Source: Candidatus Eiseniibacteriota bacterium
GTDB taxonomy: Bacteria > Eisenbacteria > RBG-16-71-46
Assembly: GCA_963707915.1 (NCBI GenBank)
Contig: OY970178.1
Location: 1,760,001-1,824,000 of the forward strand
Direction of reading: 5' to 3'
Length of the DNA: 64,000 nt
The position numbers and the translations under genes were made by a program. This document shows, piece after piece, positions 4,405-63,774 of this stretch. The number at the start of each line of letters is the position of its first letter. Position 1 is the stretch's first letter. The notes below the pieces were generated by a model. It did no database searches and had not been told where the DNA came from. It saw only the letters and a list, made by a program, of their open reading frames with translations.

Positions 4405-5517
4405 ATGACCACGCCGAGCCGGACGGTCCCGGGCTTCGTCAACGCCCACACGCACATCTACAGCGCGCTGGCCCCCTACGGCATGCCGCCCGCGGCCCCT
4501 CCCCCCGAGAACTTCGTGCAGATCCTCGAGCGCGTCTGGTGGCGACTCGACCGCGCCCTCGACGAGCGCTCGCTGCGCGCCTCGGCCCGGCTCTATGCCG
4601 CCGAGTCCCTGCTCTACGGCACCACCACGCTCATCGACCACCAGGAGTCGCCCGCCTTCATCGAGGGCTCGCTCGACGTGCTGGCCGAGGCCTGCCAGGA
4701 GTTCGGCATCCGCGCGGTGTTGTGCTACGGCGCGACCGACCGCAACGGCGGCCGCGAGGAGGGCCGCCGCGGGCTGGCCGAGTGCCGCCGGTTCCTCGGC
4801 GCGAACCACCGGCCGCTGGTGCGCGGAGTGGTCGGCCTGCACGCTTCGTTCACCTGTTCGGACGAGACGCTGCACGAGGCCGGCGAGGTGGCGCGCGAGC
4901 TCGACACCGTGGTGCACGTGCACATGGCCGAGGACCGGGCCGACCTCGAGGACGCGCGCAAGCGCGGCTACGAAGGCCCGCTCGAGCGGCTGCTCGCGAC
5001 CGAGGCGCTGCCCCCGGGCTCGATCCTGGCGCACGGCGTGCACCTCGAGCCCTCGCAGGTGCGCATGGCCGAGTCGCAGGGCCTGTGGCTGGTGCAGAAC
5101 CCGCGCTCCAACGAGGGCAACCGCGTGGGCTACGCCTCGTCGTTGTGGGTGAGCGGCAAGGTGGCGCTCGGCACCGACGGCTGGGAGGCCGACATGCCGA
5201 AGGAGTTCGCCGCGCTCGAGCGGCTCAGCGCGGGCAGCGTGCACGAGGAGGTGGATGCCGCCGCGCGCCGGCTGGTGACCGGGCGCGTGCTGGCGGCCGA
5301 GCGCTTCGCCGGGGCGCCGGGCGAGCCCGGGCTCGAGGGCGACCAGGTGGTCTACGCGGCGGGCGACGGCGCGGCGGCCGCGCGGGTGAGCCGCGTGACG
5401 GTGGCCGGGCAGGTGGTGGTGGACCAGGGCCGGCTGGTGCGCGGCGACATCGAGCAGCTGCGCGCCGAGGCCCGCGAAGAGGCGCAGAAGCTCTGGCCGC
5501 GCATGGCGGCGCTGTAG
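4405..5517 (+). CDS. Metal-dependent amidohydrolase (SsnA/chlorohydrolase-like)
   Basis: PGFVNAHTHIYS, GTTTLIDH, GLHASFT, HVHMAED, AHGVH, NPRSN, LGTDG. Confidence 0.85.
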   Translation: MTTPSRTVPGFVNAHTHIYSALAPYGMPPAAPPPENFVQILERVWWRLDRALDERSLRASARLYAAESLLYGTTTLIDHQESPAFIEGSLDVLAEACQEFGIRAVLCYGATDRNGGREEGRRGLAECRRFLGANHRPLVRGVVGLHASFTCSDETLHEAGEVARELDTVVHVHMAEDRADLEDARKRGYEGPLERLLATEALPPGSILAHGVHLEPSQVRMAESQGLWLVQNPRSNEGNRVGYASSLWVSGKVALGTDGWEADMPKEFAALERLSAGSVHEEVDAAARRLVTGRVLAAERFAGAPGEPGLEGDQVVYAAGDGAAAARVSRVTVAGQVVVDQGRLVRGDIEQLRAEAREEAQKLWPRMAAL

Positions 5518-52131: not shown

Positions 52132-52609
52132 ATGAACATGCTGCTTGAGCTGGAGGCGGCCCTCAAGGCGGCCGGCGACCCGACCCGGACCCGCATCCTG
52201 AAGCTGCTGGAGGCGGGCGCTGTGCGTCTGCCAGGTGCAGGCGGTGCTGGGGCTCGCGCCGTCGACGGTCTCGAAGCACCTGACGCTGCTCAAGGCCGCG
52301 GGCTCGTGACCGACCGGCGCGACGGCCGCTGGATCCACTACGCGCTCGCCGCGGAGGAGCGCAATCCCTACGCCCGCGCGGTGCTGGCGCTGCTGCGCGG
52401 GCCGCTCGACCGCGACCCGCGGTGCTCGAGGACCGCCGGCGGCTGCGCAGGGTGAAGGCCGTCCCGGTCGAGACGCTGTGCGCCCTGCCGCCGGCCCGGC
52501 GGGCGCCGTCGCCTCTCGTGCAGGTCGGGACGCCCCGCACCGCGCGCCGGCGCCGGCGCGCGTCGCCCGCGCGGCGCCCGCCCGCCGGCGCGGACCTCCG
52601 CATGCCTGA
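52132..52609 (+). pseudogene. arsR: ArsR/SmtB transcriptional repressor, frameshifted; end approximate
   Basis: KAAGDPTRTRILKLL; LCVC..STVSKHL in a shifted frame; RRDGRWIHY. Confidence 0.75.
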
Positions 52610-53035
52610 GCGCCTCCCCCGCCTGCTCTTCGTCTGCGTCGAGAACTCCTGCCGCTCGCAGATGGCCGAGGGCTTCGCGCGCGCGCTGGGCAGGGGACGG
52701 GTCGCCGCGTTCAGCGCGGGCTCGCGCCCCTCGGGCCGGTGAACCCGCGCGCGATCCGGTTCATGGGCGAGCAGGGCATCGACCTCTCGGCCCAGCGCTC
52801 GAAGGGGCTCGACGAGCTGCCGGCGGGACCCTGGGACAACGTCGTCACGATGGGCTGCGGCGACGCCTGCCCGCACCTGCCGGCCCGCGCACCGGCGGGA
52901 CTGGGACCTGCCGGATCCGAAGCACCTCGACGACGAGGGCTTCCGGGCGGTCCGCGATCGCATCGCGTCCTGGTCCAAGGACTCATCGACGAGGCGGCGC
53001 CCGACGGCTCCGCCGAAGCGAGCACCGAGGACTGA
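52602..53035 (+). pseudogene. arsC: Arsenate reductase (LMW-PTP type), frameshifted
   Basis: [38 protein letters not shown] across frames. Confidence 0.85.
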
Positions 53036-53064
53036 CGAACGACACTCCACCCGGGAGTCACGAC

Positions 53065-54153
53065 ATGGCAGACAGACGCGATCCGCGGCGCACGCCGGAG
53101 TCGCCGGCCGGCTCTCCTTCCTCGACCGCTACCTGACGCTCTGGATCTTCCTCGCCATGGCCGTCGGCGTCGGCGGCGGCTGCCTGTTCCCCGGCGTGGT
53201 GCCGCTTCCTGAACCGCTTCAACGTCGGCACGACCTCCATCCCCATCGCCATCGGCCTCATCCTGATGATGTACCCGCCGCTGGCGAAGGTGCGCTACGA
53301 GGAGATGGGCCGGGTCTTCCGCAACGGCCGGGTGCTCGCGCTCTCGCTGGTGCAGAACTGGGTCATCGGCCCGATCCTGATGTTCGGCTGGCGGTGCTCT
53401 TCCTGCGCGACCAGCCCGAGTACATGGTCGGGCTCATCCTGATCGGCCTGGCGCGCTGCATCGCCATGGTCATCGTCTGGAACGACCTGGCGAAGGGCGA
53501 CAGCGAGTACTGCGCCGGCCTGGTGGCCTTCAACTCGATCTTCCAGGTGCTGTTCTTCTCGCGTCTACGCCTACGTCTTCATCACGCTCGCTGCCGCCGC
53601 TGGCTCGGCCTGCGAGGGCGTCGTCGGTGAACATCACCATCGGCCGAGATCGCCAAGAGCGTCTTCATCTACCTCGGCATCCCGTTCCTCGCCGGGATCC
53701 TCACCCGCTTCGCGCTGCTGCGCGGCCAAGGGCAAGGACTGGTACCAGCGGCGGTTCATCCCGAAGATCAGCCCGATCACGCTCGATCGCGCTGCTCTTC
53801 ACCATCGTGGTGATGTTCTCGCTCAAGGGCGAGAAGATCGTGCAGCTGCCGCTCGACGTGGTGCGCATCGCCATCCCGCTGCTCATCTACTTCGTCGTGA
53901 TGTTCTCGTCTCGTTCTTCATGAGCAAGCGGGTGGGCGCCGAGCTACCCGCAGTCGGCGACGCTCTCGTTCACCGCGGCCTCGAACAACTTCGAGCTGGC
54001 CATCGCGGTGGCGGTCGCGACCTTCGGCATCCACCACGGCGCGGCCTTCGCGGCGGTGATCGGGCCGCTGGTCGAGGTGCCGGTGCTGATCGGCCTGGTG
54101 AACGTGTCGCTGTGGTTCCGGCGGCGCTGGTTCCGCGACGCGAGGCGGCGTGA
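53065..54153 (+). pseudogene. acr3: Acr3-family arsenite efflux transporter, multiple frameshifts
   Basis: [66 protein letters not shown]. Confidence 0.88.
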
Positions 54154-54161
54154 GACCACCG

Positions 54162-55203
54162 ATGAGCAGGTGCCCCGCGCGCGGCTCGGCGCCGCCTGCT
54201 GCCCTTCCGCTCGGCGGGCGCCCTGCTGCTGTGGGTCGCGCTCTACGGCGTGCTCCGGCGCGGCTGCCGCGTGGCTCACGCGCGACCTTCTGGGCTCGCC
54301 GCCGGCGACGCACCTCGGCAGCGCCGTCGAGTTCTTCGTCTTCGAGGCGCCCAAGGTGCTGATGCTCCTGACGCTGGTCGTCTTCGGCGTCGGCGTGGTC
54401 CGCTCGTTCTTCACGCCCGGAGCGCACCCGCGCCATCCTCGCCGGCAGGCGCGAGTCGGTGGGCAACGTGCTGGCCGCCGCGCTCGGCATCGTGACGCCG
54501 TTCTGCTCCTGCTCGGCGGTGCCGCTCTTCATCGGCTTCGTCGACGGCGGGCGTCCCGCTGGGCGTGACCTTCTCGTTCCTGATCTCGGCCCCGATGGTG
54601 AACGAGGTCGCGCTGGTGCTGCTGTTCGGCCTGTTCGGCTGGAAGGTGGCCGCGCTCTATCTCGGGCACCGGCCTGTGATCGCCATCGTCGCCGGCTGGG
54701 TCATCGGCCGGCTGCGGCTGGAGCGGCACGTCGAGCCCTGGGTCTACCAGATGCAGCGCGGGCGACGGCCGGGCTGCGCGAGCGCCGCCTGACCTGGGAG
54801 CGAGCGCCTAGGCCACGGGCTCGACGCGGTGCGCGACATCGTGGGCAAGGTCTGGCCCTACGTGCTGGCCGGCATCGCCGTGGGCGCCGGCATCCACGGC
54901 TACGTGCCCGAGGACTTCATGGCCGTCCATCATGGGCAAGGGGGCCTGGTGGTCGGTGCCGCTCGCCGTGCTCATCGGCGTGCCGATGTACTCCAACGCC
55001 GCCGGGATCATCCCCATCGTGCAGGCGCTGCTCGAGAAGGGCGCGGCCCTGGGCACGGTGCTGGCCTTCATGATGGCGGTGATCGCGCTGTCGCTGCCGG
55101 AGGTCATCATCCTGCGCAAGGTGCTCCGGCCCGTGCTGATCGCGGCTTCATCGGCGTGGTCACGGCCGGGATCATCCTGGTGGGCTACCTGTTCAACGGC
55201 TGA
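54162..55203 (+). pseudogene. ArsP/DUF318-like permease, multiple frameshifts; start approximate
   Basis: [40 protein letters not shown]. Confidence 0.82.
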
Positions 55204-55255
55204 TGTGATGTACTGCCTTCCGCCGTCCGGAAGGCCATTCCGAAGGGAGACGACG

Positions 55256-55489
55256 ATGACCCGGATCGAGGTGCTCGGTCCCGGCTGCGCCAACTGCGAG
55301 CGGCTCTACCGGAACACCGAACGCGCCGTGAAGGAACTCGGGCTCGATTGCGAACTCGAGAAGATCACCGACCTCAACGTCATCATGGGCTACCGCATCA
55401 TGTCCACGCCCGGACTCGTGGTCGACGGCGTGGTCCGGTTCTCCGGGCGGGTGCCCTCGGTCGAACAGTTGAAGGAGATGCTGTCCTGA
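55256..55489 (+). CDS. Small redox-active disulfide protein (MTH895/thioredoxin-like)
   Basis: IEVLGPGCANC, MSTPGLVVDG, GRVPS; AAGGGAG RBS. Confidence 0.88.
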   Translation: MTRIEVLGPGCANCERLYRNTERAVKELGLDCELEKITDLNVIMGYRIMSTPGLVVDGVVRFSGRVPSVEQLKEMLS

Positions 55490-55523
55490 GCGACTCCGTG
55501 CCCCCCAGACGGGACTCCCGGCC

Positions 55524-56426
55524 GTGGAGAGCGTGACCCACCATCACGCGCCTGCCGCCCAGGACGGCGTCCGCACCGCCTTCCTCGTGGCCGCGGGGCT
55601 CAACGTCGCCTTCGTCGCCTTCGAGGTCTTCTACGGGTTCCGGTCCGGCTCGCTCGCCCTGCTCTCGGACGCCGGCCACAACCTCGGGGACGTGCTCGGC
55701 CTGCTGCTCGCCTGGGGCGCCATCCTACTGGCCCGGCGTGCGCCGAGCGCGCGCCGCACCTACGGCCTGCGCCGCTCCACCATCCTGGCGGCGCTCGCCA
55801 ACGCCGTGGTGCTGCTGATCGCCGTGGGCGCCGTCGCACTCGAAGCGGTGCAGCGGCTTCGTCACCCGGGCCCCGTCGCCGCGCCCACGGTGATCGTGGT
55901 GGCCTCGCTCGGCATCGTCGTGAACGGTCTGAGCGCCTGGCTCCTGGGACGCGGCCGGCGCGACGACCTGAACGTGCGCGCCGCGGCGGCGCATCTGGCG
56001 GCGGACGCCGCCGTTTCGCTGGGCGTCGTGCTCACCGGCGTCGCCATGGTCCTCACCGGCCGGTGGTGGCTCGACCCGGTCGTCAGCCTGCTGGTGAGCG
56101 CGCTCATCGTCGGCAGCACCTGGGGGATCCTGCGGGAGTCGCTCGACCTGGCCATGGACGCCGTGCCCGGGCGGATCGACCCGGCGGCGGTCCGGGCCTA
56201 TCTCGAGGCGGTGCCCGGCGTCGTGGAGGTGCACGACTTCCATATCTGGGCCATGAGCACCACCGAGATCGCCCTGACGGCCCACCTGGTCACCGACCGC
56301 GCCACCCTGGACGACGAACTCACCGTGCGGATCGCCCACGACCTGTCGGAGCGCTTCGGCATCGTGCATCCCACCCTCCAGTGGGAGGGCACGGGCCGTG
56401 CGCAGCCCTGCCGTCAGGGTCGCTGA
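55524..56426 (+). CDS. Cation diffusion facilitator (CzcD/ZitB-like)
   Basis: SLALLSDAGHNLGD, TYG..R, H..AD, VHDFHIW, HPTLQ. Confidence 0.92.
   Translation: MESVTHHHAPAAQDGVRTAFLVAAGLNVAFVAFEVFYGFRSGSLALLSDAGHNLGDVLGLLLAWGAILLARRAPSARRTYGLRRSTILAALANAVVLLIAVGAVALEAVQRLRHPGPVAAPTVIVVASLGIVVNGLSAWLLGRGRRDDLNVRAAAAHLAADAAVSLGVVLTGVAMVLTGRWWLDPVVSLLVSALIVGSTWGILRESLDLAMDAVPGRIDPAAVRAYLEAVPGVVEVHDFHIWAMSTTEIALTAHLVTDRATLDDELTVRIAHDLSERFGIVHPTLQWEGTGRAQPCRQGR
56246..56419 (+). repeat. 174-bp direct repeat, copy 1 (3' end of the CDF gene)
   Basis: Matches 58005-58178 with about 8 substitutions and no indels. Confidence 0.9.
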
Positions 56427-56466
56427 CCGGTCCCCCGAAGGCCGATGCAGCGGGGGTCGACGCCCT

Positions 56467-57157
56467 CCGCCTAGCGCCCATGGATGCGCCCCCTCGTCCA
56501 GAGGAACTGGTTCCGGACCGGATCGACGACCATCTCCCCGATGACCCGGCCGGTCGCGTGGACGGCTTCAGGCGAATCGGTCGAATCCAGGGCGCCATAG
56601 GCGACCCACGCGATGTGATAGAGCGTCGAATCCGGCAGCCCGCAGGTCGCGTTTGGGTACCAGGACCGTGGATAGGCACCCATCCAGCCGTCGGGGCGGT
56701 GGTCCGCATACTCCGCAAGGATCGACTGCGTCGAAAGCGTCGTATCGGCGGCCAGGTCACGGACGGGGCGAACGAGCGCGCCCACGTGCGCGTTCGTGCG
56801 GATCGAAAAGTAGAGCAAGGTCGCGTGGGTGACGTTGGGGACAACCTCCTCTATCCTATTCGCGAAAGTAAGGACTTCGCTGGGCAACTCCCACAGCAGG
56901 GAGTCCCCTCTCACGATGATCGTGTCCCCCTGACCGCTTGCGAATACATAGGGGTCGCCCTGGCGGTCAACCGTCCTCCGGGACTGGTCAACTCCGGACC
57001 CACGAGCATGGGCCGGAGCGGGTGGTGGTGGCGGCGGAGTCCCGGCAACGCAGGCCCCGCCCATGAATGCCGCGAGGAGGAGGGCAAACCCTGAGAAGCG
57101 ATTGACGGCGGGAAGGATCGCGCAAGTAGGCATTGGGTTTACTCCCGACATTGGTGG
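56467..57157. repeat. 691-bp direct repeat, copy 1
   Basis: Matches 57223-57913 at offset 756, scattered substitutions. Confidence 0.92.
56471..57133 (-). CDS. Hypothetical exported protein, copy 1
   Basis: 220-aa ORF with hydrophobic N-region and poly-Pro linker; frame preserved in both copies. Confidence 0.55.
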   Translation of the reverse strand: MPTCAILPAVNRFSGFALLLAAFMGGACVAGTPPPPPPAPAHARGSGVDQSRRTVDRQGDPYVFASGQGDTIIVRGDSLLWELPSEVLTFANRIEEVVPNVTHATLLYFSIRTNAHVGALVRPVRDLAADTTLSTQSILAEYADHRPDGWMGAYPRSWYPNATCGLPDSTLYHIAWVAYGALDSTDSPEAVHATGRVIGEMVVDPVRNQFLWTRGRIHGR

Positions 57158-57222
57158 ATGACCGCTCCGGCCGAGGGCGCCAGGCAGAGCGCCGCTGCGA
57201 TGATCAACAGGGGCAAGAAGTG

Positions 57223-57913
57223 CCGCCTAGCGCCCATGGGCGCGCCCCCTCGTCCAGAGGAACTGGTTCCGGACCGGATCGACGATCATCTCCCCGATCA
57301 CCCGGCCGGTCGCGTGGACGGCTTCAGGCGAATCGGTCGAATCCAGGGCGCCATAGGCGACCCACGCGATGTGATAGAGCGTCGAATCCGGCAGCCCGCA
57401 GGTCGCGTTTGGGTACCAGGACCGTGGATAGGCACCCATCCAGCCGTCGGGGCGGTGGTCCGCATACTCCGCAAGGATCGACTGCATCGAAAGCGTCGTA
57501 TCGGCGGCCAGGTCCCGGACGGGGCGAACGAGTGCGCCCACGTGCGCGTTCGTGCGGATCGAAAAGTAGAGCAAGGTCGCGTGAGTGACGTTGGGGACAA
57601 CCTTCTCTATCCTATTCGCGAAAGTAAGGACTTCGCTGGGCAGCTCCCACAGCAGGGAGTCCCCTCTCACGATGATCGTGTCCCCCTGACCGCTTGCGAG
57701 TACATAGGGGTCGCCCTGGCGGTCAACCGTCCTCCGGGACTGGTCAACTCCGGACCCACGAGCATGGGCCGGAGCGGGTGGTGGTGGCGGCGGAGTCCCG
57801 GCAATGCAGGCCCCACCCACGAACACCGCAAGGAGGAGGGCAAACCCTGAGAAGCGATTGACGGCGGGACGGATCGTGCAAGTAGGCATTGAGTTCACTT
57901 CCGACGTTTGTGG
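57223..57913. repeat. 691-bp direct repeat, copy 2
   Basis: Matches 56467-57157. Confidence 0.92.
57227..57889 (-). CDS. Hypothetical exported protein, copy 2
   Basis: About 10 amino-acid differences from copy 1. Confidence 0.55.
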   Translation of the reverse strand: MPTCTIRPAVNRFSGFALLLAVFVGGACIAGTPPPPPPAPAHARGSGVDQSRRTVDRQGDPYVLASGQGDTIIVRGDSLLWELPSEVLTFANRIEKVVPNVTHATLLYFSIRTNAHVGALVRPVRDLAADTTLSMQSILAEYADHRPDGWMGAYPRSWYPNATCGLPDSTLYHIAWVAYGALDSTDSPEAVHATGRVIGEMIVDPVRNQFLWTRGRAHGR

Positions 57914-58004
57914 CCACGTCTTCGCGTTAGCGGTACTTGCTCTTGAGTTCACCCCATGAGATCCGGCGGCAACGCGGGGTGCCCCCCCGCGGAGGGGGTG
58001 GTGG

Positions 58005-58178
58005 CTGGGCCATGAGCACCACCGAGATCGCCCTGACAGCCCACCTGGTCACCGACCGCGCCACCCTGGACGACGAACTCACCGTGCGCATCGCCCACAA
58101 CCTCTCGGAGCGCTTCTGCATCGTGCATCCCACCCTCCAGTGGGAGAGCGCAGGCCGTGCGCAGCCCTGCCGTCAGGG
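58005..58178 (+). repeat. 174-bp direct repeat, copy 2 (orphan CDF 3' fragment)
   Basis: Encodes WAMSTTEIALTAHLV...QPCRQG, as in the CDF C-terminus. Confidence 0.9.
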
Positions 58179-58254
58179 CCGGACGCGCCCTAGCCGGCGA
58201 TTCGATGACCCGCTGCCGGGCCGCTGGCAGGTTCCGCGCACCCCGGACCTTCGC

Positions 58255-58298
58255 TTGCGGAGCGGTGGCCCGGGCCCATATACTCATCTGCATGAGTA
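58255..58298 (+). promoter_or_regulatory. Probable leaderless promoter and operator of the second arsR
   Basis: TTGCGG - 18 bp - TATACT - 7 bp - ATG; palindrome TACTCAT-ctgc-ATGAGTA at 58281-58298. Confidence 0.55.
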
Positions 58299-58660
58299 CA
58301 CTTCAGGCCCGCCCCGCGGAACGGATCGACACGATGTTCCGGGCCTTCGCGGACCGGACGCGCCTCCGGATCCTCCATCTGCTGCAGGACGGCGAGCTCT
58401 GCGTCAGCGACATCATCACCATCCTGGAAGTGCCCCAGGCCAAGGCGTCGCATCACCTCAACTACCTGCGCCGAGCCGGGCTGGTCGAGACGCGCAAGGA
58501 GGGCCTCTGGTGCTTCTATCGGCTCCGTCCGGCGAAGTCGCCCTTCCACGAGAAGCTGCTCGAGTGCCTTGGGCAGTGTTTCACCCACGTGCCCGGGCTC
58601 GCCGCGGACCGCAAGCGGGCGGCGAAGATCAAGGCGTCCGGCGGATGCTGCCCACGATGA
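58292..58660 (+). CDS. ArsR/SmtB transcriptional repressor
   Basis: FRAFADRTRLRIL, ELCVSD, SHHL.YLR.AGLV, EGLW..Y; C-terminal GGCC. Confidence 0.9.
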   Translation: MSTLQARPAERIDTMFRAFADRTRLRILHLLQDGELCVSDIITILEVPQAKASHHLNYLRRAGLVETRKEGLWCFYRLRPAKSPFHEKLLECLGQCFTHVPGLAADRKRAAKIKASGGCCPR

Positions 58661-58775
58661 CCCATGGCGTCGGGGGTCCACCGATCGTCCTGGCTGACGA
58701 ACGGGCTCGAATGGCCGGCACTGGACCGCGACCGATGTCGATGGATCGGCACACTCACCACCAGAGGGGGTAACG

Positions 58776-59539
58776 ATGAACCGCCGTGGCCTCGGTTTCA
58801 TCTTGCTCATGCTCTGGACCCTGGGTCCGATCGCCGCGGCCTCGGCGCAGCGCGACGTGGACTCCGCCGCGAAGCAGGGGAAGATCGCCTTCATCCTCGT
58901 CACGGATCCGGGCGCGACCGGCGTCGACCAGGCGACGAGACATCATCCAGCAGGCGATGAAGCAGGTCAGCGGGTCGACCCTGGTCGAACTGGACCGGTC
59001 GGACCCGGAGAACGCCGAGCTACGTCGCGAAGCTGCGGCTGGCCGGCGCGCCTGTGCCGCTGATCCTCGTCGCGGCGCGCAACGGCGTCCTGCGCGGCGG
59101 GATTGCTGGCGGCCCAGGCGACGCCGGCGATCCTGCTGCGCGCTGGTTCCCTCGCCCAAGAAGGCCGAGATCCTGCAGGCTCTCCAGAGCGGCAAGCCCG
59201 TGTTCATCACCGTGAGCCGGAAGGGCATGCCCCGCGAGCCCAAGGCGGTCGCCGACTTGCGTCGCGGCGTGCGGCAAGATGGGCGACAAGTCCGCGCTGG
59301 TCCGGATCGACATGGCGGATCCCCGGGAGGCGGCGTTCCTCTCGCAGCTCAAGGTCGACTCCGCCGCGACGGAGCCGGTGACGCTGGTGGTCAACGCGCA
59401 GGGGCAGGTCACGGGCTCGTACACGGAAGCGCAGGAGGTGGCGAGTCTCGTGCAGGCGGCGACCAGGGTCGTGAGCGGCTGCGGCCCCGGTGCCGGCGGT
59501 CCGGGTGCGGCGAGTTCCTGCGCTCCGGCCAAGAAGTAG
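58776..59539 (+). pseudogene. Exported hypothetical protein (thioredoxin-like repeats suspected), multiple frameshifts
   Basis: Signal peptide; coding fragments in three frames (VELDRSDPEN, VPSPKKAEIL, VRIDMADPREA); Cys-containing C-tail. Confidence 0.55.
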
Positions 59540-59551
59540 CGGCGGGTCGGC

Positions 59552-60774
59552 ATGAACCTCCGCACCATCCTCTGGAAGGAACTCTGGCTGCGGAAGTCCC
59601 GGATGGTCTCCGGGCTTCTCGCGATCACGCTCGGCATCGCGGTCATCGTCGCCATCCAGTCGGTCGCGTCCGTCTCGGAGCGGGCGGTCAAGATCAAGCT
59701 CGACAACCTCGGGGCGAACATCCTGGTGCTGCCCCAGGCGGCTTCGGTGGATGACTACTACACCGCGGACATCGACGCGCCGACGTTCCCCGAGGACTAC
59801 GTGGAGCGGCTCGCCACGTCCATGCTCCCGGGCGTCGACAACCTGTCCCCCAAGCTCACGCGGCGGGTCAGGGTCGGCAGCGTTCCGGTCATCCTCACGG
59901 GCATCCTGCCGGCCAACGAGCTGGCCTCCAAGCCGATCTGGCAGAGCGCCGGGCTGGCCGGCGCGGCGCTCGCCGCCGCCTGCGGCCCGAGCCCCGAGGT
60001 CGCGAAGAAGGGCCCCTCGTACGTCGACGAGCGCCTCCAGCGCAAGGCGATCACCGCTCTCGCCCCGACGGAGGTGCTGCTCGGAAGCGTCGCGGCCCGG
60101 CGCCTGAACCTCCAGGCAGGCGGCAAGGTCACCATCGCGGGACGCGAGTTCTCGGCCGCGCGCGTCCTGCCGGAGACGGGCACGATCGACGACGATCGCA
60201 TCTACGCGCACCTGCACGTGGTGCAGGGCCTGCTGGGGACCGGGCGCAGGTCAGCGCCATCGAGATCATGGGCTGCTGCTCGGCGATCTCCGACGGGCTC
60301 CTCGGGAAGCTGCGGAACATCCTGCCGGACACCCGGATCACGACCATCGGGCAGATCGTGAACACGCAGATCGAGACCAATCGCCTGATGGGCGAAGATC
60401 TCCCTGATCCTGCTCGTGATCATCGTGCTCGTGGGCGCGATCTCGATCGCGAACTACATGTGGGCCAACGTCGAGGAGCGCAGGCGCGAGATCGGCACGC
60501 TCCTCACGCTCGGCGCGACCCGCGGGAGCATCTACCGCCTGTTCTTCGCGAAGTCGATCGTCCTGGGCGTCCTGGGCGGGATCGGCGGCTACGTTGTCGG
60601 GACGCTCGCTGCCCTGATCCTCGGTCCGGAGCTCGCGGACTGTCCGTCCAGCCGATCCCGATCTACCTCGCCTGGTCCGTCCTGATCTCCCTGGTGATCG
60701 CCGTGCTCGGGAGCTGGTACCCGACGTACCGCGCGACGCGCCTCGATCCGGCCTCGATCCTCCAGGAGTCCTAG
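59552..60774 (+). pseudogene. MacB/FtsX-like ABC exporter permease, frameshifted
   Basis: [44 protein letters not shown]; periplasmic IMGCC. Confidence 0.82.
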
Positions 60775-60776
60775 CG

Positions 60777-61493
<717 letters not shown>

Positions 61494-61552
61494 AGCTTCT
61501 CCCGGCAAGCTCGGGAAGCGACTCCCCGGCCGGTGCGGGTACGCTCCGCGCC

Positions 61553-61847
61553 ATGCGACACGCCCACTTCGAATCCGACGAGCTGCGGGAGTACGTCGCC
61601 GCCCGGGGCGGGACGCTGCGCGTCTCGCTCCAGGCGATCATGCACGGCTGATGAAGGGTCGAGCGCGGCCCGGTCGGGTCGCTCGAGATGCCGCAGGACC
61701 CCGCCGGGCATGAGCGCCTGGACGCCGGCGGGATCGCGCTCTACGTCGCAGCGGGATGTGCTCGCGGCTCTCGCGGATCCCGCCCGGGTGAGCTTCGCGT
61801 TCGGCCGCTTCGGCCGCTGCTCCATCCGCCTCGGCGCCGGCGCCTGA
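61553..61847 (+). CDS. Putative HesB-like (vicinal Cys/Sec) selenoprotein with tandem Sec-Sec; one apparent extra base near 61750
   Basis: In-frame GGC-TGA-TGA at 61646-61654; coding-like sequence continues in the same frame; SECIS-like hairpin immediately 3'. Confidence 0.7.
61659..61686 (+). promoter_or_regulatory. Bacterial SECIS-like stem-loop
   Basis: TCGAGC-gc-GGCCC-[GGTC]-GGGTC-GCTCGA; apical loop 17 nt after the second TGA and 20 nt after the first. Confidence 0.7.
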
Positions 61848-61905: not shown

Positions 61906-62291
61906 TCAGCGGGCGCCTCCGGAGCCGGCCCGTCGGCCGGGCCGCGGTAGCGCTCGCGGAGCCGACCGGTCTCGAGCAGCGCCGCGCCCAGCAGCGCCAG
62001 CAGCGCCACGCCGCCCAGGATCGCGGCCAGTCGCCCCCAGGGCTCGCCCGCGGCGCGCCGAGCGGGCAGCAACTCGGCCAGCGTGCGCATCCACTCGAGC
62101 GCGCCCGCGACCAGCGCGAGCTGCGCCAGGCGCGCGGCCCACCGCCGGCGCACGAGGAGCAGGCCGAGCAGCGCGACGCAGGCGACCACCCACCCGAGCT
62201 CGCCCCGCCGCAGGAAGTGCGCGCCCAGCACGAGCGCGCTCAGGCCCGCGGGCAGCAGCAGCAGGAAGCCGCGCGTGCCGGCCGCCCTCAT
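61906..62291 (-). CDS. Small membrane protein (3' end uncertain, possible frameshift)
   Basis: ATGA overlap with the upstream gene; AHFLR, EW.RT, GEPW.RL..IL; four hydrophobic segments. Confidence 0.65.
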
Positions 62292-63220
62292 CGCGCCTTC
62301 CCCGCGGGGTCCGTCCGGGCCAGGTCCGCGTAGACCACCCGCAGGAACCGGTCCGGCTTCATGAAGCCCCCGCCCCAGGCGTCGTCCAGGTCGGCGAGCG
62401 GCTTCGCCGCCAGCACCTGCTCGAGCGTGCGGCCCTCCGCGACGAGCTTCGCCACGCGATCGCGCACGGTCACGAGCATGTCGCGGAAGCGCAGCATCGC
62501 CGCGCGGTCGGCGAGCGGGCCGTGCCCGGGGACGACCCGGGTGGCGGGGCCGACGAGCGTCAGCAGCCGCTCGAGCGAGTGGACCATGCCGCCGATCGAG
62601 CCCCCCGCTCCGACGTCGATCACCGGGTAGGTGCCGTTGAAGAGCAGGTCGCCCGTGTGCAGGACGTCCACGGCGGGCACCCACACGACGGCGTCGCCGT
62701 CGGTGTGGCCGGGCGGCAGGTGGAAGACGCGGAGGTCGGGCCCGCCGAGGTGGAAGGTGAGCGAGTCGGCGAAGGTCAGTACGGGCAGCGCCCCCGCGGT
62801 CGCCGCCTTCGTGCTCTCCCTGGGGGTCATGTTGAACCGGCCCGCGTCCATGCGGCGCCGCGTGTTCGCCTGCGCCACGATGGCCGCGCCTGCGGCGGCC
62901 ATGGCCGAGTCCCCGCTGACGTGGTCGCCGTGGTAGTGCGTGTTGACGACGAAGCGCAGCCGGCCGCCGCCGGAGAGCGAGTCCGCTGCGGCGCGGATCC
63001 TCGCCGCGAGCTGCCCGTACTGGGAATCCACCAGCAGCACACCGTCCGGTCCCGCGCAGACCAGCAGGTTCCCGCCGGCCCCGCTGAGCATCCAGAAGCC
63101 GTCGGCGAGCCGCTCCGGCCGGATGACGACCTGCTCCCAGTCACGCTGGGCGTGCGCGGCCGAAGCGGCGGCCAGGGCGAGGCCGGCGAGCAGGACGAGG
63201 AAACGCGTGAAGCGTCCCAT
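62288..63220 (-). CDS. Secreted MBL-fold metallo-hydrolase
   Basis: Signal peptide; NTHYHGDH, GHTDGD, HTGDL, VPGHG. Confidence 0.9.
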   Translation of the reverse strand: MGRFTRFLVLLAGLALAAASAAHAQRDWEQVVIRPERLADGFWMLSGAGGNLLVCAGPDGVLLVDSQYGQLAARIRAAADSLSGGGRLRFVVNTHYHGDHVSGDSAMAAAGAAIVAQANTRRRMDAGRFNMTPRESTKAATAGALPVLTFADSLTFHLGGPDLRVFHLPPGHTDGDAVVWVPAVDVLHTGDLLFNGTYPVIDVGAGGSIGGMVHSLERLLTLVGPATRVVPGHGPLADRAAMLRFRDMLVTVRDRVAKLVAEGRTLEQVLAAKPLADLDDAWGGGFMKPDRFLRVVYADLARTDPAGKAR

Positions 63221-63233
63221 CGGGGCCTTCGCG

Positions 63234-63473
63234 TCACGCCCCGGGCTTGGGGGCGGGCGGTTCGAGGTCGAAGGCGGCGACTTCCGAGCGGAACCCACAG
63301 GTCTTGTGGGCCCCGTCGCAGAACGGCTTCTTCTGCGAGTGGCCGCAGCGGCACAGGCTCGCGTGCGGACGGCCCGCAAGGCCGAAGGCGCGGCCTTCCG
63401 AGTCCACGATCTCGAAGTCGCCTTCGACCCGCAGGGAGCTGTCGTTCTTCACCGTGATTCGGGCGGCTGCCAT
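63234..63473 (-). CDS. CDGSH iron-sulfur domain protein
   Basis: LCRCGHS.KKPFCDGAH. Confidence 0.9.
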   Translation of the reverse strand: MAAARITVKNDSSLRVEGDFEIVDSEGRAFGLAGRPHASLCRCGHSQKKPFCDGAHKTCGFRSEVAAFDLEPPAPKPGA

Positions 63474-63774
63474 CCGTTCCTCCAGGTTTCCGCGCGGGAC
63501 CCCGCGTTCCCCGGGCCAGTTCGGCATCCACCCGGCCCGGAGCGCGTACCCGCTTGGGACGCAGCCACTTTAGCCCGACCCGTTCCCGTACCGCCAGCCG
63601 GGGTACGGGCGGTCGCGGTGGCGGCGGACCGGCCCGGCCGGCGGCGGCCGGGTGCCGCGCAACCGGGCGCGGGCCCGGCCCGTACTAGGATGCAGGTGAG
63701 TCGCGCCCCGGAGGCGAGCACCCGACTGGGAGACGGCCGGGCCGATCCCCGGGACGCAAGTGGAGGGCAGGGAG

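Follow-up and report, generated by a model that had tools for sequence, protein, structure and literature searches.

The window, a stretch of 64,000 nucleotides from the genome of a Candidatus Eiseniibacteriota bacterium (G000), carries near its end a short gene with two adjacent in-frame TGA codons and a hairpin directly behind them. The features of this region are given below by their positions in the window.

52284-56423 (+): arsenic and metal genes (an ArsC-type LMWPc fragment, an ACR3 fragment, ArsP_1 permease fragments, Thioredoxin_3 and an intact CDF gene), with many single-base indels relative to the ortholog locus L037
58037-58657 (+): ArsR-family regulator (Pfam HTH_5, E 6.6e-17)
59540-61490 (+): MacB-type ABC permease and ATPase genes in several frames, directly upstream of the TGA-containing gene, with the Pfam MacB_PCD and ABC_tran matches split over ORFs
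61553-61847 (+): candidate Sec-Sec gene of 97 codons (predicted Gly32-Sec33-Sec34), its frame broken by one extra base at 61748
61649-61654 (+): tandem in-frame UGA codons, proposed to encode Sec-Sec
61659-61686 (+): SECIS-like hairpin, with a lower stem (61659-61662/61683-61686), a 2-nt bulge, an upper stem (61665-61671/61676-61682) and the loop GGUC (61672-61675)
61748 (+): additional G, causing a +1 shift of the frame and missing both from L037 and from a related contig in metagenome run X3
62291-63569 (-): convergent metallo-beta-lactamase-fold gene and CDGSH iron-sulfur gene (Pfam Lactamase_B, E 6.5e-18; zf-CDGSH, E 1.4e-16), in an order shared with L037

The original prediction, made from the letters alone, had placed a start codon at 61553, two TGA codons at 61649-61654, a hairpin and a stop on this strand, for a product of about 97 residues, and every one of its coordinates proved correct. 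The frame opens with the ATG and runs through 32 sense codons ending in ATC ATG CAC GGC before TGA TGA; the spacer AGGG then separates the second TGA from the start of the hairpin at 61659. With TGA written as U, the translation is MRHAHFESDELREYVAARGGTLRVSLQAIMHG-U-U-RVERGPVGSLEMPQDPAGHERLDAGGIALYV. Past 61747 the sensible reading lies in the +1 frame, and when GCAG is taken as a single step (X) at the break, the product has 97 residues with the C-terminus RDVLAALADPARVSFAFGRFGRCSIRLGAGA and the final TGA at 61845-61847. The extra base that had been suspected near 61750 is the G at 61748. The window differs here from L037 by this one letter (TACGTC[G]CAGCGG), the X3 contig (61658-61812) likewise omits one base at 61748, and the intact paralog and the orthologs read V-H-R/S-D-V-L at the break. 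A programmed +1 frameshift at 61748 was rejected because orthologs and paralog do not have that base.

The letters of the TGA site itself agree with independent sequence. Logan contigs from four metagenome runs, which at a likeness of at least 85% come from relatives other than the same strain, aligned to the gene; those of the independent runs X2, X3 and X4 span 61649-61654, with no differing letter between 61620 and 61687 among the rows listed, and the summed contig depth peaks around the TGA TGA site. Among public sequencing runs, none contained half or more of the sampled words (best share 0.16), and no RNA run was listed. Upstream of the gene, a -10-like element (61538-61552) lies 5-7 nt from the ATG in 4/4 close copies (window, L002, L022 and L023; GGTACGCT, GGCATAGT, GGCATACT and GGTATGCT), and none of the four shows a Shine-Dalgarno sequence ahead of its ATG, so the mRNA may be leaderless. 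A simple promoter and terminator scan found nothing.

The combination of tandem TGA and hairpin exceeds chance in this genome. The hexamer TGATGA occurs 1604 times on the two strands, and in only three cases does a hairpin with a GGTC loop and at least 6 pairs lie 12-29 nt downstream; two of these are the window gene and its paralog, the third being an out-of-frame ATGATGAAC. As background, 41 of all 62406 TGA triplets in the genome have such a hairpin.

A profile built from three close copies was run against 206 genomes of the phylum. Matches were found in nine of them, G000 included, comprising 10 full-length loci, each with two in-frame TGA codons, and one C-terminal remnant in G000. Gly-TGA-TGA is present in the translation of 10/10 full-length loci, and the earlier question of whether homologs retain both TGAs and the hairpin was answered in the affirmative for all of them. 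The nine intact proteins show 28-77% identity to the first sequence and share only seven invariant columns, three of which are G32, U33 and U34. Between copies, differences at third codon positions predominate before as well as after the TGAs (13/9/31 by codon position downstream of the TGAs for the window and its paralog), and coding selection therefore acts on a single frame to either side of them. The gene family is genuine.

Within G000, a search with the NCBIfam model NF041239 also recovered the second locus (C1:164201-164392, again with two in-frame TGAs); the intact paralog occupies C1:164177-164467 and reads MRQAHFES...MHG-U-U-RVDLGPVGSLEIPED...HVHRDVLAKLKDPARLSFAFGKFGRCWLRLGADP-stop. 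The remnant is a third copy, at C1:159354-159488 (L063 4354-4488, + strand), which consists of the C-terminal half only, ending YERLDAEGVAIHVQRDVLTVLQSPKRLTFAFGSFGRCVLRLEAAP-stop, without the Sec-Sec half, and which adjoins a DsbD-like gene. Most members of the window's branch have a Cys close to the C-terminus, in FG-x-FG-x-C. A contig scan gave three loci. Two of these, L036 and L037, were left out of the count because they may come from genomes already counted; the other, L038, was spurious, a chance SLQAIMHG match within a 721-aa ORF on the other strand. All homologs known at the DNA level belong to one class of one phylum. A motif scan of metagenomes, unbiased as to C, U or W at both positions, returned 24 loci, none of them homologous, and hence no DNA of the family from outside the phylum; a tblastn search of plasmids gave no match to it.

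In protein databases the gene appears in pieces. Our search of 5.8 billion proteins returned seven matches, two C-terminal pieces starting VRGPVGSL and five N-terminal pieces ending ...MHG. Among 1.84 billion representatives, an exhaustive search found 38 matches, of which three are long tandem-repeat proteins (P0011, P0034 and P0040); among the other 35, four match positions 1-32 only and 31 match from position 36 onward only, so that none spans positions 33-34. The database halves accordingly end at residue 32 or begin at residue 36 or later. A full-length profile of nine sequences gave 10 matches of 54-70 residues, assessed by length and coverage only, and together with the 5.8-billion search it yielded proteins of just 54-96 aa, covering at most 64% of the query. 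The prediction that the ORF track misses the gene agrees with these findings: gene callers miss it, as the databases hold halves only. No full-length Cys-containing homolog, whether CC, CU or UC, was found in the protein-database searches. The usual argument from Sec/Cys alignment is therefore lost, and the lack of a Cys form may explain why homology-based selenoprotein finders would miss the family. The repeat protein P0034 (309 aa) contains four tandem units of ~43 residues, each with GGGCITFQRVGGRGCCRGARRPIGSFGVPEVA, which resembles the Sec-Sec motif region with Cys-Cys in its place; this may be either a remote relative in repeat form or the chance translation of a DNA repeat.

The hairpin claimed in the original prediction is present letter for letter from 61659 (TCGAGC gc GGCCC [GGTC] GGGTC GCTCGA). 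Counted from the second and the first UGA, its loop begins at 17 and 20 nt in the window, and at 21 and 24 nt in the second branch of the family. The 10 loci were aligned without gaps, anchored on the loop, with the register set by eye. The seven loop-proximal pairs are formed in 94.3% of the 70 cells, while in a control with the 3' arm slid by 1-3 columns pairing reached only 28.6-54.3%. In three of the seven pairs both partners change (C-G to G-C, G-C to C-G and C-G to U-A). The covariation score is 0.390 against a shuffle mean of 0.142, and 0/500 shuffles reach it, although this control overstates the support because the homologs are related. In L032 the pairs lie one column off, around a GGU triloop. 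An argument stronger than the covariation statistics is that the RNA structure is retained while the encoded peptide and the codon phase differ between branches. In the window branch, G-P-V-G-S is the peptide encoded by arms and loop, the latter read as (CC)G GTC; in the other branch (L029-L031), P-S-G-R-M is encoded and the loop, four bases farther from the TGAs, is read as GGT C(GG).

The 48 nt after the UGAs have minimum free energies (MFE) of -16.6 to -24.4 kcal/mol at the 10 loci, and the hairpin is part of the MFE fold in eight of them, two favoring another structure. Taken alone, the 71-nt RNA is no more stable than its shuffles (z -1.28, in a genome of 72% G+C); the support for the hairpin therefore comes from conservation and not from energy. 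The rules for bacterial SECIS elements given in a 2026 catalogue are a loop of 3-9 nt with a G in the first two loop positions, a stem of 4-16 bp, a distance of 16-37 nt from the UGA and an MFE of at most -7.5 (PMC13188914), and the hairpin falls within these ranges with its GGUC loop (GGU in L032), its stem of 6-8 bp, its spacing of 17/20 or 21/24 nt and its MFE. Rfam gave four matches (E 0.55-10), all far under the gathering scores and none to a SECIS family. The likeness to the fdhF-type consensus of E. coli consists in a coding-region hairpin just after the UGA with a small apical loop starting GG or GU; unlike in that consensus, one hairpin must here serve two UGA codons 3 nt apart.

Whether the genome encodes selA, selB, selD and tRNA-Sec had been proposed as a check, and the complete set is present. 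For tRNA-Sec the score is 71.3 bits (gathering score 47) and the anticodon, according to ARAGORN, is tca; selB scores 345 bits and selA 544 bits. The selD gene (368 bits) adjoins tRNA-Sec and has an in-frame TGA of its own (VACAG-U-ASKLGP), followed by GGGUCC-GGC-GGACCU, in which the GGC loop starts 17 nt downstream. Genome-wide reassignment of TGA was ruled out, as rpoB and rpoC are single open frames with no internal stops and TGA is therefore not a general sense codon here.

The only family matched by profile is NF041239, the "CC/Se motif family (seleno)protein" (Moor_selen_rel), with E values of 1e-9 to 2e-4. The first 66 residues of the window protein score 32.7 bits and the read-through protein 35.4 bits (E 8.6e-9), where the curated cut-off is 40; all 10 proteins lie below it, nine at 21.7-38.2 bits and L032 with no match, and 0/41 genomes scanned with this model had a hit above it. 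The match covers profile positions 6-69 with U-U inside, as judged from its extent and not from a residue-by-residue alignment. In length the two families are similar (91 profile positions), and the matched segment crosses the motif region. They differ in that NF041239 appears in the 2026 catalogue with the motif CxxU and one Sec (PMC13188914), whereas the window family has two adjacent, invariant, predicted Sec residues. The latter is a divergent branch related to NF041239, one that we did not find in the catalogue text searched.

The protein had also been likened to small HesB-like proteins, and the predicted fold, nearest to the IscA/HesB type, agrees with this in a weak yet consistent way; the sequence matches neither Pfam Fe-S_biosyn nor NCBIfam TIGR01911 at E up to 10. 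A search of the PDB by sequence gave only two chance matches (E ~0.09), and no IscA. The AlphaFold2 model, built from a 36-row alignment of the nine read-through proteins and the database halves, has a mean pLDDT of 95.5 and a pTM of 0.85 across both halves, and it places residues 32-34 in a turn between strands 21-31 and 35-43. Foldseek found nothing at E 0.001 or better; its best rows, all weak, were IscA (1s98, E 0.014, probability 0.98, TM 0.42; also 1r94 and 1x0g), DsrR, HI1723, AQ_1857 and SufA. With VIA, which is independent of Foldseek, the top seven rows were all of the IscA-type fold, with Z of only 3.7-4.6 and an rmsd of 3.1-3.9 over 76-82 residues, the next row having Z 2.6. Over nearly the whole model, the best structural matches are IscA, SufA, DsrR, HI1723 and related "Fe-S biosynthesis" proteins; as in HesB-like (TIGR01911) and A-type carrier proteins, the model is that of a small single domain with a predicted reactive residue in an inter-strand loop and a further Cys near the C-terminus. 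Against this likeness, the catalogue gives HesB-like proteins as UxGP with one Sec (PMC13188914).

That the gene lies beside arsenic and metal genes had been stated from the window, and ArsR, ACR3, ArsP_1, CDF and others are indeed found there. Flanks were examined at eight loci, leaving out the short loci of G068 and G074, and arsenic-resistance genes were present at five of the eight.

Window: ArsC-type, ACR3, ArsP_1, Trx_3, CDF, ArsR and MacB/ABC genes, then the Sec-Sec gene; MBL and CDGSH genes convergent
L037: ArsR, ACR3, ArsP_1, Trx_3 and CDF genes, then the Sec-Sec gene; MBL and CDGSH genes convergent, with a chromate transporter beyond
G000, second copy: divergent ArsC-ACR3-ArsP_1-Trx-Trx-DsbD genes; MacB/ABC genes after the gene
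G003: divergent ArsC-ACR3-ArsP_1 genes; thioredoxin and DsbD genes after the gene
G066: ArsP_1, thioredoxin and DsbD genes, then the Sec-Sec gene; ACR3 and ArsR genes convergent
G044, G073 and G041: flanks free of arsenic genes

The MacB/ABC pair that adjoins the second copy in G000 is an intact paralog of the one in the window. In G073, a gene for a Fer4_5 protein (a NapH-like 4Fe-4S membrane protein) lies directly upstream of the homolog (L066 2896-4275, + strand), and this protein is a possible different redox partner.

The locus most likely belongs to an overlooked family of selenoprotein genes in which a Sec-Sec pair is invariant, and from the sequence comparisons we put at about 0.8 the probability that both UGAs are read as Sec with one SECIS serving both. 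The gene would then encode a cytoplasmic protein of ~95 residues. SelB with Sec-tRNASec would dock on the hairpin and read the first UGA, and one translocation later a second SelB/Sec-tRNASec complex would read the second, the one GGUC-loop hairpin immediately downstream directing both insertions. In the modeled IscA/HesB-like fold, Gly-Sec-Sec would form the turn that ends a beta-hairpin. The arsenic context and the vicinal pair suggest a part in detoxifying arsenic and metals: by analogy, the vicinal diselenol might capture a soft metalloid or metal, As(III) for instance, or hand it over. Alternatively, the Sec-Sec pair might cycle as a diselenide, fed by the neighboring thioredoxin and DsbD proteins. 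The ArsD metallochaperone and the C-terminal Cys-Cys of MerA offer a parallel, with a vicinal chalcogen pair as the hand-over site for soft metals or metalloids in resistance operons and, in ArsD, a third Cys besides the pair; they have unrelated folds, no Sec and no homology to the family, and the analogy is one of mechanism only. We propose the metalloid role tentatively, at somewhat less than even odds. The composite picture of a family occurring solely in Sec-Sec form, in which SelB delivers twice in succession from one SECIS within the coding region and a vicinal diselenol/diselenide captures arsenic-like metalloids, seems to us slightly better than an even bet.

Bacterial Sec insertion is usually viewed as one UGA, one hairpin and a fixed distance, the SECIS acting by its position next to the UGA. 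We know of no bacterial system in which SelB has been established to deliver twice from one hairpin at codons 3 nt apart, and recoding of a single UGA in E. coli is inefficient. In eukaryotic selenoprotein P several UGA codons of one mRNA are read as Sec as well, but there the SECIS lies in the 3'UTR and acts at a distance. A conserved tandem-UGA gene with one hairpin would offer a direct test of whether, and how efficiently, SelB reloads on the same SECIS one codon later. If the pair is real, vicinal Sec-Sec would be a rare natural diselenol site of relevance to metalloid binding and redox chemistry, and a family in Sec-Sec form only would combine a recoding mode and a protein chemistry that we have not found described for bacteria. 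The class of gene is one that escapes both ORF callers and selenoprotein finders based on Cys homology, since the former split it and no Cys form was found for the latter to use. The main text of the 2026 catalogue lists no adjacent bacterial Sec pair, and the strings GUU, UUx, xUU, UUG, UUC and CUU are absent from it (PMC13188914). The available portions of deep-Sep and BSepDB mention no case of two or multiple Sec, beyond a script allowing them, and those of the 2007 Olavius symbiont paper mention two Sec only for archaeal FrhD. In the literature searched, where most queries were swamped by unrelated words, we found no description of adjacent bacterial Sec or of one hairpin serving two UGAs.

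Two other ways of reading the tandem TGAs have to be weighed. Only one UGA might encode Sec, the other being decoded by a near-cognate tRNA (e.g. that for Trp or Cys) to give U-X or X-U. Tandem SelB delivery has no demonstrated precedent, and in the window only the second UGA stands at the 17-nt spacing seen in selD, the first lying at 20 nt, which would fit a single insertion. However, both codons are TGA at all 10 loci despite the divergence of the proteins; were Cys or Trp sufficient at one of the sites, TGC, TGT or TGG would be expected there in some lineage. The second branch, with its loop 21 and 24 nt away, also indicates that the spacing is tolerant, and we consider a single Sec unlikely. 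The tandem TGAs might instead be a true, strong stop, yielding a 32-residue peptide with a separate downstream product or none, and the hairpin a by-product of regulation or coding. In its favor, halves of just this kind are what gene callers annotate, and no full-length Cys homolog was found in protein databases. It is very improbable nonetheless, as the two halves stay in one frame in 10/10 loci, both contribute strands to one confidently modeled domain, the window has no start codon after the TGAs until a Met at 61688, the hairpin covaries independently of the peptide and the genome holds the full Sec machinery. Reading both UGAs as Sec remains the preferred interpretation of the family.

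The state of the window copy is a separate matter, as the arsenic island here could be a duplicate in decay and its Sec-Sec gene a dead pseudogene, with only the copy at C1:164177-164467 functioning. Its frame is broken by the base at 61748, and the neighboring ACR3, ArsP_1, MacB and ABC genes are fragmented too, the stretch 53094-61800 being dense in single-base indels that are mostly insertions relative to the ortholog. All of the broken genes have intact paralogs, 77-89% identical, at C1:160-167 kb of G000, and the unbroken state of rpoB, rpoC, selA and selB shows that the assembly is not poor throughout. On the other side, the indels relative to L037 between 53.1 and 56.4 kb are nearly all of a single base, with 24 extra and 8 missing bases and no long deletions, and the gene has no defect other than 61748. 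The broken genes are also exactly those with a paralog elsewhere, as expected from read mis-assignment in polishing, while the CDF, MBL and CDGSH genes, which are not duplicated, are uninterrupted. Insertion-dominated single-base indels confined to duplicated genes look closer to a consensus error from mis-assigned reads than to decay. One of the two EF-Tu-like (tuf) matches of G000 (C1:1907726-1908611, - strand), beside a tRNA cluster, is likewise split in two frames (model positions 1-154 and 157-267), which points to a frameshift or an assembly error there. We regard a dead window copy as possible but doubtful; the break reflects either an assembly error or a decaying duplicate.

One further feature of the window concerns the organization of the island. 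The 178 nt at 58005-58182 are 85% identical to the 3' end of the L037 CDF gene (4746-4923), and they edge a block of ~5 kb containing the ArsR gene, an unknown gene and the MacB and ABC genes. This block is missing in L037 between the CDF and Sec-Sec genes, and by sequence the CDF-like stretch looks like the trace of an insertion or duplication.
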